Assembly: GCA_951406725.2 (NCBI GenBank) | Contig: OX597823.1 | Coordinates: 77,748,001-77,812,000, forward strand | DNA: 64,000 nucleotides | Reading direction: 5' to 3' | Origin: Octopus vulgaris | Lineage: Eukaryota | Shown here: positions 13,256 to 54,606 of the stretch, in pieces | Position numbering within the stretch: the stretch's first letter is position 1 | Layout of the letters: each line of letters begins with the position of its first letter | Notes under the pieces: generated by a model | Databases searched by the model: none | Told to the model about the DNA's origin: nothing | Seen by the model: only the letters and a program-made list of their open reading frames with translations | Translations under genes and position numbers: made by a program

Positions 13256-13557
13256 ATATATAAGAAAATAGTAAAGTGTGAAAAAACGACAGAAGGCTTA
13301 AATGTTAAAAAATATATATATTTGTGTCAAAATGTCTGGAGAATATTGGAGAATATTGGAGAATAACGTCACAAGAAATTTGAAAAGCTACACGCGAAAC
13401 CGGTAATTTCTTTAAAAATTTAAAAATTATGTCATTTTAAGGAAAGGGAAAAAAAAAATTTTTCCAATATTCTCCAGACATTTTGACACAAATATATATA
13501 TTTTTTAACATTTAAGCCTTCTGTCGTTTTTTCACACTTTACTATTTTCTTATATAT
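13256..13557. mobile_element. Foldback element in (AT)n: 95-bp inverted repeats (13256-13350 / 13463-13557) around a hammerhead-containing spacer
   Basis: Arms read as exact reverse complements; flanked by AT microsatellite on both sides. Confidence 0.85.
13373..13412 (+). ncRNA. Minimal type-I hammerhead ribozyme, U3-A8 core variant
   Basis: aagaaat|TTGAAAA|gc-tacac-gc|GAAA|ccgg|TA|atttctt: 7-bp stem I, palindromic stem III ACCGGU, GUA cleavage triplet. Confidence 0.7.
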
Positions 13558-15384
13558 ACATATATATATATATTTGTACATATATATATATGTACACACA
13601 TACACAGACACACACATATATATATATATATATATATATATATATATATATATATATAGAATGGCCTGGAACAACATAAAATGGAACATTTTGCTCAAAA
13701 AAATAGCATACCACCCAGTCCAGGAACTGAAAGTATGGTCCTGTGATTATGAGTGCAACACCCTAACCACTAGGTCATGCACTATTATAATTTTCTGCAA
13801 AACAAGATTAAGTCTAGTCTTCACTGATGCACCACATATGAATCAATGAATTCTAAAACTCATCATTACCTAGAGCTCAAAGAAATGTTTCTTGGAATTT
13901 TTTTTGTATTTCATTGATCTTGTGGTGTTTGGTGGGGTAGGTTGGCAGTTGTTAAGATAAATTTCTCAAAATGTTTCATTGGATAATATACCTGCAGATG
14001 ACCTTTTTCCTTCTAAGTGATCCAAAATTGGAAAAAAAAAAAAAAAGCCATATTATTAGCAAATGCCAAGCCATAAAAGCTGCAGAAATACTTTTCACAC
14101 GATGAAAAGAAAAAGGATAAACCTAAAAATCAAATAGCAATTTGCACAAGACAGTGAAGATAAAAAAAATGAAATGACCTTTTCTATTATCTATCCAATA
14201 ATTCTTTGGTTTGCTGGTCGGTCAAACCAGCTTTTTGTTTTATTATTTTTTTAATATTTTTTATTTTGTTTTTTTTTTTCTCCCCTCATTCCTGTTTGTC
14301 TAATATACATTACTGTCTGTAAGTTTTGGTGAAGCAGAAATGTAGAAAAAAAAGTTATTTCACTGAATGCTTGGAAAATCAAACATGTTAGGAACTTGTA
14401 CTTGGTTGCAGTTGTTATACTTTCTAGAAGTAACAATCAAATTTCCCTCAAATTACACCCTATTCTCAAAGACAAAAAAAACAACGAAGGAGAGAGAGAT
14501 TGAATAATATAGTCTGGAATAAACTATGCCAAGAAATAGAAGAGTAAATGATTTGCAAGGAATGATAATGAAATGGGACAGTCAAAGAAGCATCAGTTAG
14601 TTCAGGCAGCACCAACATCAGCTAAGCAACAAAATACAATAAATTTCTATTGCTGTTTCTGCAGTCATTTTGCCATATTGATCAAGACAAGATTGTTTTG
14701 TGTGACCAGTGCTGTTGTTATTCATATTCAGACCTAGGTCCCGATCAAACAGACTGATGTTCAAAAGACTTCCAACCATGACCATTCTCACTTTTTTCCT
14801 AAGAAAAAAGGGTGCTGTTACAGGAAGATTTTAATAGTTATTGTTTAACACATGGTCGGGTTTGACTAGGCAAATCTGTGATCAAAAGCATTCCAGCCAT
14901 ACAAGTTTTCTTCTCTGCAGCTGCTGACACAGTGTGTTGCATTGAGAGGGGAGTAAACTCATCTAATGACATAATCTGCCTACAGCATGCTAAAGGTTAA
15001 GAACATTTTGGACAATATAGTTCATGACACCCTATGTTTGAATAGAAGATGAGGTAGTTGTGGCTGGAAATGTCTTTGAGCATAAGTGTACTTGATCTGG
15101 GTAGATTTACGACTAAACAACAAGTACAACCATTAACTCAAATATATTACAGCAATTCAGCAGTTTATGTTGAATCACCACAATAAAAAGCAAAGAGATT
15201 TAATGGAAATCTAAGTTAATTACATTTCTTTTTCATTCAGAACAATTCTAGATATTTGTATGATTCAAATATGTCATTCTTGAAGTTGTAAATATTTTTA
15301 TACTCATCAAACTCATGGTTAAAAATGTTTTTTTTTCTGCACAATATTCAGTGGAACTGGTGTCTGCTGCACACACACACATAC

Positions 15385-15826
15385 CCACACATCAGATATA
15401 CATACATACATACATACATACACACATACATACATATATATACATATATATATATATATATATATATATACATATATATATATATATATATACACACATA
15501 TATATATACATATACATATATATATACATACATATATATATATATACACACACATATATATATATACATATATATATATATACACACACACAAATATATG
15601 TATGGATACATATCAGTATATATGTGTATATATATATATATATATATATATATATATATATATATACATACACATATATGTGTATATACATATATTATAT
15701 ACATATGTACATATACATATAGAAATATATATATACACATGCAGACACTTACACACACACACATATATATGTATATATGCACACTTGGATATATATATAT
15801 ATATATATATATATATATATATATAT
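15385..15826. repeat. (TACA)/(TA)n compound microsatellite
   Basis: Direct reading. Confidence 0.95.
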
Positions 15827-16209
15827 TTTACATGAAATTTATTGTATTATTAATATTCATCATTTCTAGTCTTCTTTGCATGCGCATCCTTTCATGTATA
15901 TAGATTACATAAATTTTAGCTTTACTGTAGTCAAATCTATTACATAATTATATAGCAAAATATGTATTGGCAAATAATATATAATTATATATATATATTT
16001 ATTTTATGATGCACAATACACCATGAATCAAAAGTAGTGAAACTGAATCTAAATAGCAGAAAGCCTTGCTTGTGACAATGTATGATATAAGAATGTAAAA
16101 ATGTTAGTTCTATATTTTCAGTTCAGTCTGCAGGAACAGAAGCATGGACTCTTCCAACAATTATTCCACATTTTGTTGATTGCTGCATGTCAGCAAATAG
16201 TTCTTCAAT

Positions 16210-16478
16210 ATGTGTGTGTGTGTGTGTGGTGTGTGTGTGTGTATGGTGTGTGAGTGTGTGTGTGTGTGTGGTGTGTGTGTGAGTGTGGTTGTGTGTGTAT
16301 GTCTTTGCATGTGTGTCTTTGTGTATGTGTGTGGTGTGGTTATGTGTGTGTATGGATGTGCATGTGTGCGTATATTGTTGTGTGTGTGTGTCTTTGCACG
16401 TGTCTTTGTGTGTGTGTGTCTTTGTGTGTAGTGTGGTTATGTGTGTGCATGAATGTGTGTTTGTGTGTGTGTGTGTGC
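16210..16478. repeat. Degenerate (TG)n tract
   Basis: Direct reading; followed by the 3' half of a family A SINE (~16480-16568). Confidence 0.9.
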
Positions 16479-16568
16479 TTGTGTCTGTCTTTGTCCTTCA
16501 TCACTGTTTGATTACCAGTGTTGGTATGTTTACACCCCTGTTCTGTAAAAAGAGACCGATAAAATAAG

Positions 16569-52321: not shown

Positions 52322-52406
52322 AGTAGTAGTAGTAGTAGTAGTAGTAGTAGTAGTAGTAGTAGTAGTAGTAGTAGTAGTAGGAGGAGGAGGAGGAGGAGGA
52401 GGAGGA
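52322..52406. repeat. (TAG)n(GAG)n microsatellite
   Basis: Direct reading. Confidence 0.97.
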
Positions 52407-53992
52407 GCGGCTGCAGCTATGTGAAATGTTCAACCAATAGTTGCAGAAAAAGTTCTATAATGATGATAATGATGGTAAGGATTTCTTCTAGAGTAAAGGT
52501 GATGTTTGTGCTAAGGGATACTATTACCTGTATGTGCATGTGTGTGTGCATATGTGTGTGTTTGTGTGTGTGTGTGTGTGTATATGTATGTATGTATGTA
52601 TATGTGTATATATACGTATGCATGTAGGCATATATATATATATATATATGTATGTATATTTGAAAAAATGAGTAGAGATGGGTTTTTGTGGGGGATAATT
52701 TTTATTTCAATTATAATGTTTACAGTGAATGACTCTGATAATTTTTTTATATATATTTTTCGCTATTTAACATTTTTGCTATTTAAGCAACCAGTAAAAC
52801 ATACATTTTTCAGTTTGAAAACAGCTATTTGAAGCTTGAAACTCATACCAGAATCACTCAGGGTAAACATTATTAAAATAAAAATTATCCCTCCCCCCCT
52901 TAAGAGAAAGCCATCTCTACTCATTTTTCTCAAATATATAATACTATACCAAGAATTTTCTTTTTATTATTCTACTATGATGATGATGATGGTGGTGGTG
53001 GTGGTGGTAGTAGTAGTGGTGGTGGTTTTTAGGGACCACAACAATGACAGCAACAGTAATGACAATGATGAGGGCCATGAAGGTGGAATCTGTAAAAAGA
53101 GGGGTTGGGAGTAGGAGCAGCAGAAGATGAAAGAAGAAGGTGGAGAAGTAGAAAAAGAAGAAGAAATATGACATCAACAACAACAACTTAGAAATATAAG
53201 ACGTCAAATTAAAAAGTGAAAATAGCAAAAAAAAAATATCAATAAAGAGTATAACAAAATATACACACACTAAAAAATATAGAAATATGAAAATAAACAG
53301 TGAGAATGAATTATGAAGGAAGAACAAGAATATGGCATTCGTTCTTTTGTAAACTTCATGTCAAATTAGTTTATTTACATTATCTTTTTCCCAATGACAT
53401 TCTCAAAAGTTCAGCAGAAAATATCAAAACCTTTCCAGGGAAATTCCACTTGCTCACTTCTGGAAATTATATTTCCCTTGCAGTATTGCACTTTAAATAA
53501 CAATAGACGAAGGGAAAAAAGAAATTGTGGTTTTTTATTTTAAACACTTTGCTTATGAATTTAATAATAGAAAATGATAAATGATGATATCCTATGTCAA
53601 ATTCAAGGGATTTTTTTTTCATATCTTTATCGATTTCTTTTCATTTTTATCACACATGAACAATTTATCTATTTATCTATCTCTCTATCTACCTGTCTAT
53701 CTATCTATTTATCTATCTATTTAGCTATCTGTCTATCTATCTATTTATCTGACTCTCTATCTATCTATCTATCTATCTATCTATCTATAACTATAGACAT
53801 ATACATATGTCTGTAATATATATATATATACATATTTATACACACACACACACATATATGCATATGTGCATGTGTGATGTGTGTGTAAATATGAATATTA
53901 TACTTACCTACCTATCAATCTATATCCATGATATATATATATATTTATATATATATAAAGTATGGTATATAATAAGTATATGTGTGTGTATA

Positions 53993-54413
53993 GGTGCAAG
54001 AGTGTCTGTGTGGTAAGTAGCTTGCTTATCAACCACAATTCTGGATTCAGTCCCACTGTGTGGCAACTTGGGCAAGTGCCTTCTACTATAGCCTCGGGCT
54101 GACCAAAGTCTTGTGAGTGGATTTGGCAGACAAAAACTGAAAGAATCCTGTTGTATATATATGTATATGTGTGTGTGTGTGTATGTATGTGTGTGTGCGT
54201 CAGTGTGTGTTTGTGCATCTGTTACCCCATCATTGCTTGACAACCAATGTTGGTATGTTTACGTTCCCATAACTTAGTGGTACAGCGAAAGAGACCAATC
54301 GAATAAGTACTAGGCTTCCAAAGAATAAGTCCTGGGATCGATTTGTTTGACTAAAGGCAGTGCTCCAGCATGGCTGCAGTCAAATAACTGAAGCAAATAA
54401 AAGAATAAAAGAA
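53993..54413 (+). mobile_element. Full-length SINE family A
   Basis: Head, internal microsatellite and tail present. Confidence 0.92.
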
Positions 54414-54556
54414 TTTATATATATATATGTATGTATGTATATATATATATATATATATATATATATATATATATATAATTGCAGAGTGGAAGGTGTTTAT
54501 AAGCCATTTAAGAAACACACAAAAGCCGTTCGATTCACTTCAACATTTAAGTTTAA

Positions 54557-54606
54557 TTTGTCAAAATATTTTCGTCGCTAAAATCCGCGACCTGTTCACT
54601 GACAAA
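54557..54606 (-). ncRNA. Minimal type-I hammerhead ribozyme, G3-C8 core variant, within a ~170-bp insertion (54478-54645) in (AT)n
   Basis: tttgtca|GTGAACA|g|gtcgc-ggatttta-gcgac|GAAA|atat|TT|tgacaaa: perfect 7-bp stem I, 5-bp stem II, palindromic stem III. Confidence 0.72.

Follow-up and report, generated by a model that had tools for sequence, protein, structure and literature searches.

Minimal type-I hammerhead ribozymes have been described in the pseudo-long terminal repeats (pLTRs) of Penelope-like elements (PLEs) and in those retrozymes of animals that lack long terminal repeats (non-LTR retrozymes), and these are the closest known systems to a set of hammerhead motifs found in Octopus vulgaris. 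The octopus motifs were detected in a 64,000-nt stretch of contig OX597823.1 (assembly GCA_951406725.2, forward-strand positions 77,748,001 to 77,812,000; hereafter the window), within a 2.8-Gb host genome rich in microsatellites, and they represent four multi-copy families, A to D. First-look searches with the four gave, in no order of letter, 1323, 1743, 1849 and 2232 candidates, and 40 from each search were scored. Core positions 3 and 8 are occupied by U-A in A and C, C-G in B, and G-C in D; families found elsewhere in the genome are given later letters.

In the Cercyon PLEs of Schistosoma mansoni the hammerhead is of type I, lies in the pLTR and has a palindromic or absent helix III (Cervera and De la Pena, 2014; PMC4209133), as in the octopus elements; Cercyon and other metazoan PLE hammerheads in that source also share with them an optional extra nucleotide that follows position 9 and precedes 10.1, a U3-A8 pair that includes the UUGAAAA core, and mostly truncated single copies. 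With about 1,300 U3-A8 matches in Schistosoma (PMC4209133) and the same U3-A8 covariation among natural core variants (Perreault et al., 2011; PMC3088659), which likewise include weak stems II of 1-2 bp and core insertions, the novelty that a preliminary description of the window had attached to this pair does not stand, UUGAAAA in Schistosoma PLEs included. The alignment rows compared from PMC4209133 hold only C3-G8, U3-A8 and one U3/G8, whereas the octopus has expanded families with G3-C8 (D and F) and A3-U8 (H and F), a stem II down to 2 bp, and four pairs in one genome; similarly, U3-A8 is the sole variant that the core-variation section of PMC3088659 names for positions 3 and 8. Minimal hammerheads have been proposed to dimerize through the palindrome, with low dimer activity (PMC4209133).

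The anole Poseidon element PAc carries the same PLE pLTR motif, has two reverse transcriptase (RT) start sites that yield a tail, and inserts at AT-rich targets; its hammerhead cuts only with the element protein, and an engineered C3G/G8C change partly rescues it (Frangieh et al., 2024; PMC11167929). G3-C8 was obtained in PAc by mutation of a natural C3-G8 core, whereas in D and F it is natural, and the octopus elements have a zinc-finger linker of the Neptune/Nematis type, unlike PAc. Animal non-LTR retrozymes lack an open reading frame (ORF), are arranged head-to-tail and carry one type-I hammerhead per unit (Cervera and De la Pena, 2020; PMC7229834; bioRxiv 10.64898/2026.07.22.740005), as do octopus families B, G and K. 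The B unit of 586 nt compares with the 170-400 nt quoted for animal retrozymes, and B also has A10.1/C11.1; a further difference is that G and part of K carry U3-A8.

The U3-A8 pair, the extra nucleotide and the UUGAAAA core are already published; what appears to be new, although this is not proof, is the natural occurrence of G3-C8 and A3-U8. Neither pair was found as a natural form in the literature searched, which left out the 2017 survey by Lunse, Weinberg and Breaker, the largest of these motifs, in which small PLE-associated hammerhead variants with a reduced stem III reportedly cleaved as dimers.

Covariation of core positions 3 and 8

The preliminary description had placed five motifs in the window, with three kinds of 3-8 pair (C-G, U-A and G-C), and had held that the two positions change together. 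All five motifs are present at the given coordinates with the cores described; four families in one window are insufficient to show covariation, and the pair was therefore followed genome-wide. In a blind sample of 60 stretches of 10 kb (600 kb in all, with 8 shuffles as control), 17 of 18 matches, at 9 of 10 loci, had a Watson-Crick pair at 3-8, and shuffled runs gave about 1.5 matches each; the paired matches were C-G in nine cases (seven from one array), G-C in five (family D, three loci), and U-A in three. Genome-wide, a pattern with positions 3, 7 and 8 free gave 4001 matches, and the reversed control gave 192. Matches to a loose G3-C8 pattern were not in bulk excess (677 versus 733), but the pattern did expose a second G3-C8 family, F, and an A3-U8 pattern (2394 versus 1429) exposed family H. 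The F and H motifs lie behind endonucleases 47-65% identical to that of A.

When positions 3 and 8 were left free, family H gave 762 matches versus 0 in the control, with A-U in 95 of 100 matches listed and with N7 and the tetraloop variable. The same search for family F gave 320 matches versus 27 and, tallied by eye among 100 matches listed, A-U in 72, G-C in 18, C-G in 1 and mismatches in 9; the mismatches comprised two A.C intermediates, no G.U, and seven others. Comparison of the F A-U form (28 copies) with one F G-C group (4 copies) leaves only 4 of 224 columns different, these being positions 3 and 8 and one CpG. Six F copies about 20 kb apart (G000:C1:132.44-132.54 Mb, L393-L398) are likely a segmental tandem duplication, so the A-U count is slightly inflated. 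Family K, a tandem, ORF-less retrozyme, has C-G and U-A subfamilies separated by 29 differences in 318 columns; G is a further tandem family with a U-A core.

Helical positions outside the core also change in pairs: stem I of H reads AUC/GAU or GUC/GAC, and the stem II closing pair is A-U in C and G-C in I. A C/I-type subfamily (L303:1500-1530, minus strand, and similar rows) has A10.1 opposite C11.1, between these two closing pairs. An alignment across families made with MAFFT was discarded, as it mis-registered the cores. In an endonuclease tree (33 of 52 rows after duplicate thinning, plus D, with the F G-C rows labelled from the pattern-search results), the groups A/J, C/I and F have starred support and H has weaker support (87/98).

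Positions 3 and 8 thus form a Watson-Crick pair that occurs in all four forms in one genome, so that the list of three needs a fourth, A3-U8, in H and F; the expected joint change is seen within families, in F and in K, and G3-C8 is present in two distant lineages. Lying behind RT/GIY-YIG genes and fixed in expanded families whose positions 3 and 8 change jointly, these sequences are probably minimal type-I hammerhead motifs in the terminal repeats of several PLE families and in their ORF-less tandem derivatives; the four forms of the pair (C-G, U-A, G-C and A-U) would reflect selection that likely preserves the catalytic fold but leaves the identity of the pair free.

The window motifs and their elements

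A strict hammerhead descriptor with positions 3, 7 and 8 unconstrained has exactly two matches in the window, the A motif (13373-13412) and the D motif (54557-54606, minus strand). Local dinucleotide shuffles (n=40) gave a mean of 0.25 matches at stem I >=5 and no Watson-Crick match at stem I >=7. The B motif escapes the descriptor because its stem II starts with A opposite C, and the C motif because the window copy is decayed. The Rfam hammerhead models at gathering score have no match in the window, family B included, nor in five loci of F, H, I and K, in keeping with the expectation that screens of the CUGANGA type miss non-canonical cores; an Rfam scan by E-value returned only microsatellite-driven microRNA matches among the 150 of 304 matches listed.

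The family A motif (13373..13412, plus strand) has a 7-bp stem I, a 2-bp stem II with a 5-nt loop, GAAA, a CCGG palindrome and U16.1-A17; U3 is at 13380 and A8 at 13385, and the predicted cut falls between 13405 and 13406. It lies in a 3' stub (the pLTR end) at 13363..13560 (plus strand), next to a second family A 3' end, inverted and with its tail, at 13222..13357 (minus strand), in the inverted arrangement typical of PLEs. The core was present in 39 of 39 scored motifs. In full copies an intact 811-aa frame for RT and GIY-YIG (Pfam RVT_1, E 2.9e-7; nearest clusters of the C-terminal part GIY-YIG, at 0.96) precedes the motif by about 145 nt, and loci L129/L130 show a tandem pLTR-ORF arrangement. 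An open frame of 495 codons, stop to stop, lies upstream and shares about 170 nt with the RT frame, read in a different frame (L129:5292-6776 and 3031-5463, minus strand, and L130); it has no Pfam match.

The family D motif (54557..54606, minus strand) has a 7-bp stem I, a 5-bp stem II closed by G10.1-C11.1, GAAA, an AUAU palindrome and U16.1-U17. G3 is at 54599, C8 at 54594 and an extra G, between A9 and G10.1, at 54592; the predicted cut is between 54564 and 54563. The motif lies in a 3' stub (54478..54714, minus strand), and in longer copies a 3' untranslated region (UTR) of about 1 kb with internal simple repeats separates it from a PLE gene distinct from that of A, represented by a GIY-YIG endonuclease (E 4.8e-5) and an RT fragment; no full-length frame of D was recovered. 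The exact motif occurs in 27 of 42 scored motifs and G3-C8 in 127 of 135 copies; the variant cores of A and D are the norm of their families, as had been anticipated, and not decay. Differences between D subfamilies are confined to loop II, loop I and the flanks, with none of about 35 core and stem columns changed versus 4-5 of 88 downstream columns. In four public runs labelled as four organisms there was no variant at >=3% at the D core positions, and there were many in loop II. At L125:507-548 one run, X9 (taken as RNA by guess), has several A-to-G changes on the element RNA strand at 3-10%, seen in X9 only, which could be A-to-I editing of a fold-back RNA or alleles of that organism. Extrapolation from 6 insertions in 600 kb gives about 28,000 D insertions genome-wide (about 10,000-60,000).

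The decayed family C motif (51404..51444, minus strand) lies in an old 3' stub (51340..51555, minus strand) with about 90% identity between copies, and it departs at three motif positions from the family majority, which has a U3-A8 core, a 4-bp stem II closed by A-U, GAAA, CCGG and UA. Only decayed coding fragments of C were recovered. C is an older relative of A, with about 50% identity between their endonucleases and with the core and stem III common to both; the insertions, described at first as unrelated, are thus not all so. The A and D RTs are only 27% identical over 131 aa. In the window, A, C and D are each present as a 3' stub that has no coding remnant and is probably inert.

The zinc-finger linker before GIY-YIG is C-x4-C-x2-C in A and C-x3-C-x2-C in D, and a CX2-5CxxC linker is attributed to Neptune and Nematis PLEs (PMC8557442). 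(TA)n directly follows the 3' end in 38 of 41 A arms, 9 of 12 D arms and 10 of 16 C arms versus a background of 11%. By linker and (TA)n bias A and D would be placed with Neptune/Nematis, and they are young PLEs with RT and GIY-YIG endonuclease, in line with the EN+ PLE plan of an RT and, C-terminal to it, a GIY-YIG endonuclease with a CCHH motif. The repeats 5' of D are in part UTR repeats of the element itself, the match reaching 54714.

Family B forms a retrozyme-like insertion (32567..33754) of two arms, a minus arm from 33359 to 32567 (about 1.35 units) and a plus arm from 33359 to 33754; the unit repeats head-to-tail with a period of 586-587 nt, and its longest ATG frame is 30 aa. The plus-strand motif (33472..33563) has C3-G8, a long stem II starting with A10.1/C11.1, a CGUACG palindrome and U16.1-C17; a second motif (32868..32959, minus strand) is on the inverted arm, and since a single inverted insertion carries the two on opposite strands, a same-transcript dimer is impossible. 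Nearly all copies have A10.1 opposite C11.1, so that stem II is non-canonical. A fragment 75% identical to a B-related element, without a hammerhead, lies at 40772-40862. With A and D behind RT/GIY-YIG genes, B in ORF-less tandems, and (TA)n after the 3' ends, the proposal of several microsatellite-associated Penelope- or retrozyme-like families is borne out.

The type-I layout is common to all of these motifs, with the extra G of D and the A10.1/C11.1 of B as departures from it. Stem I has 7 bp in both A and D and 6 bp in B, and that of C is short and interrupted; stem II closes with G10.1-C11.1 in A, D, F, H and I, with A-U in C and with an A/C mismatch in B; stem III is palindromic in every family, with a predicted duplex of -8.3 kcal/mol in A, C, F and H and -9.8 kcal/mol in B. 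U4 G5 A6 N7, A9, G12 A13 A14, A15.1-U16.1 and H17 are present in the majority sequence of each of the families A, B, C, D, F and H; only B and K have literal C3 with G8, and H has A-U. Constancy of U4, G5, A6 and A9 had been claimed from the window, and A6 fails genome-wide: an abundant family with the hammerhead layout, C3-G8 and an extra A has U at position 6 in 21 of 21 distinct contexts listed (24 matches in the sampled loci, some overlapping; L003:1900-1950, L098, L193, L342, L385 and others), with variable N7 and H17. The A6U change would be expected to impair cutting in this U6 family.

At least 8 more canonical C3-G8 hammerhead motifs, from different families and with assorted palindromes, were seen (L002, L021, L056, L067, L080, L111, L141, L146, L170, L308). 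A recurring element end (L265, L273 and L282, about 1500-1540), besides F the other repeated match of the loose G3-C8 pattern, has stem II, GAAA, a CGCG palindrome and UA, with only five letters at the 5' core, right after (AT)n, and is possibly a 5'-clipped hammerhead; its reading as a G3-C8 core was rejected, since stem II can take those letters as its 5' strand.

Copy ends and competing explanations

Each of two families has two 3' ends, at +87-92 and +144/158 in D and at +161 and about +203 in A; these ends, 90-200 nt behind the predicted cut, match the two RT starts and the tail of PAc (PMC11167929), and inverted 5'-truncated arms and tails are present, as in PLEs. The 5' edges lie elsewhere than at the cut: in 43 of 65 D arms, mostly head-to-head fold-backs, the start falls 40-63 nt upstream of the cut, and the edge is hard, at the CAG/ATG of a splice-acceptor-like or initiator-like site 57-60 nt upstream of the cut (54620..54645, minus strand), which combines a branch-like hexamer and a pyrimidine tract with CAG/ATG and whose role may be either; A and F have smaller 5'-edge clusters just upstream of the motif. 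The templates would therefore have been uncut or re-ligated, and the commonest D template likely had its start just 5' of the motif. The D fold-backs suggest repeated snap-back at a fixed RNA 5' end. Older D subfamilies (L197-L226) are mostly head-to-head fold-backs of about 300 bp whose junction details vary, all at a site of the 54620-54645 type. A lariat origin of the D edge was rejected, with no pile-up at a branch-like site; an intron ends at helix I in the Penelope of Drosophila virilis (PMC4209133).

A number of results weigh against selection for a cutting ribozyme. Of 65 D arms, 3 start within 4 nt of the predicted cut, an internal deletion accounting for one, and so does 1 of the A arms listed; 3 of 35 F arms start within 5 nt of it and none in H or I, and fossil evidence of cleavage was accordingly rejected as support, too few copies starting there. 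Mutating the anole hammerhead left insertion in vitro unaffected, and none of the reads stopped at the cut site (PMC11167929). A and H have a stem II of just 2 bp. The proper stem III duplex of D is predicted at only -0.2 kcal/mol, and a mis-registered 10-bp duplex that buries A13, A14 and U17 is more stable (-3.8 kcal/mol). By folding energy, the motifs of A, C and D have no advantage over shuffled sequence (z 0.85, 0.73 and -0.41). B, with A10.1/C11.1, and the U6 family have been amplified, so that spread is possible with apparently impaired motifs. As for covariation, the F switch may be a single event, since subfamily copies are non-independent and the G-C group compared has n=4; the branching order of the four A-like groups in the endonuclease tree is unresolved, and the number of switches is therefore uncertain; and the missing core change across D subfamilies is weak when taken alone.

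Much of this would also follow if the hammerhead fold were conserved as a non-cutting structure, for instance as a binding platform for RT and endonuclease or as a cue for making the RNA 5' end or for template jumping, with the 3-8 pair kept only for shape; copies that nearly always span the cut site, with 5' edges clustered just upstream, the very weak D dimer helix, the abundance of impaired-looking variants and the dispensable anole motif (PMC11167929) all suit it. This explanation is nevertheless unlikely, although it is the strongest competitor: the catalytic core is described as including the 3-8 pair (PMC3088659), G12, A13, A14, U16.1 and a non-G at 17 are retained in every family, and re-ligated circular templates also predict copies that look uncut (PMC4209133), so that copies spanning the cut site are compatible with uncut or circular templates alike.

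It is more improbable still that the variant cores are neutral relics, decayed motifs that hitchhiked with their master elements, their pairing a coincidence or an artefact of the descriptor. Independent switches that can be counted are few, the loose G3-C8 pattern lacks a bulk excess, and subfamily counts are phylogenetically non-independent, but in searches with 3 and 8 free the two were paired in 91 of the 100 F matches listed and in 95 of the 100 listed for H, two F subfamilies show fixed differences at 3 and 8 only, and the pairing recurs in lineages as unrelated as those of the A and D RTs; hitchhiking is disfavoured. Chance matches or protein coding, to which AT-rich DNA and an ATG 21 nt before the D core might point, can scarcely be entertained and are refuted by the shuffle and reversed-pattern controls, the motifs lying moreover 3' of the stop codon, by 145-800 nt or more, and D, for which coding constraint was rejected for want of a conserved frame, having subfamilies set apart by a 1-nt loop indel that shifts any reading frame.

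Proposed mechanism and implications

The favoured mechanism is the one already described for PLE hammerheads, with the identity of the 3-8 pair left free: two motifs, in a tandem transcript or in two RNAs, would pair through the palindromic stem III, probably with help from the element's own protein, and a slow cut after H17 would trim read-through or tandem transcripts. Reverse transcription would initiate 90-200 nt 3' of the cut site, and RT would pass through an intact motif, uncut or re-ligated into a circle, into nicked (TA)n DNA. A bolder version of this can be offered only tentatively: these would be the first natural high-copy hammerheads with a purine at position 3, all four forms cutting as protein-assisted dimers, with tens of thousands per genome missed by consensus surveys and with a short D RNA mobile. 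On this version, and with the same reserve, G3-C8 might be present in two unrelated PLE lineages and A3-U8 in one or two, a switch between G-C and A-U having been caught inside one family; and a D RNA of about 150-215 nt, starting right at the ribozyme, could conceivably, though somewhat doubtfully, be the main mobile unit.

The in vivo role of PLE hammerheads is at issue, as they cut poorly alone and are dispensable for insertion in the sole in vitro system. CUGANGA-based descriptors and Rfam overlook motifs such as these, of which family D alone would contribute some 28,000 by extrapolation. The octopus families supply matched natural pairs, F G-C against F A-U and K C-G against K U-A, together with an intact 811-aa element protein; and compensatory changes that fill out, in nature, every form of a tertiary core pair, in actively spreading families, are evolutionary evidence for a selected catalytic conformation.

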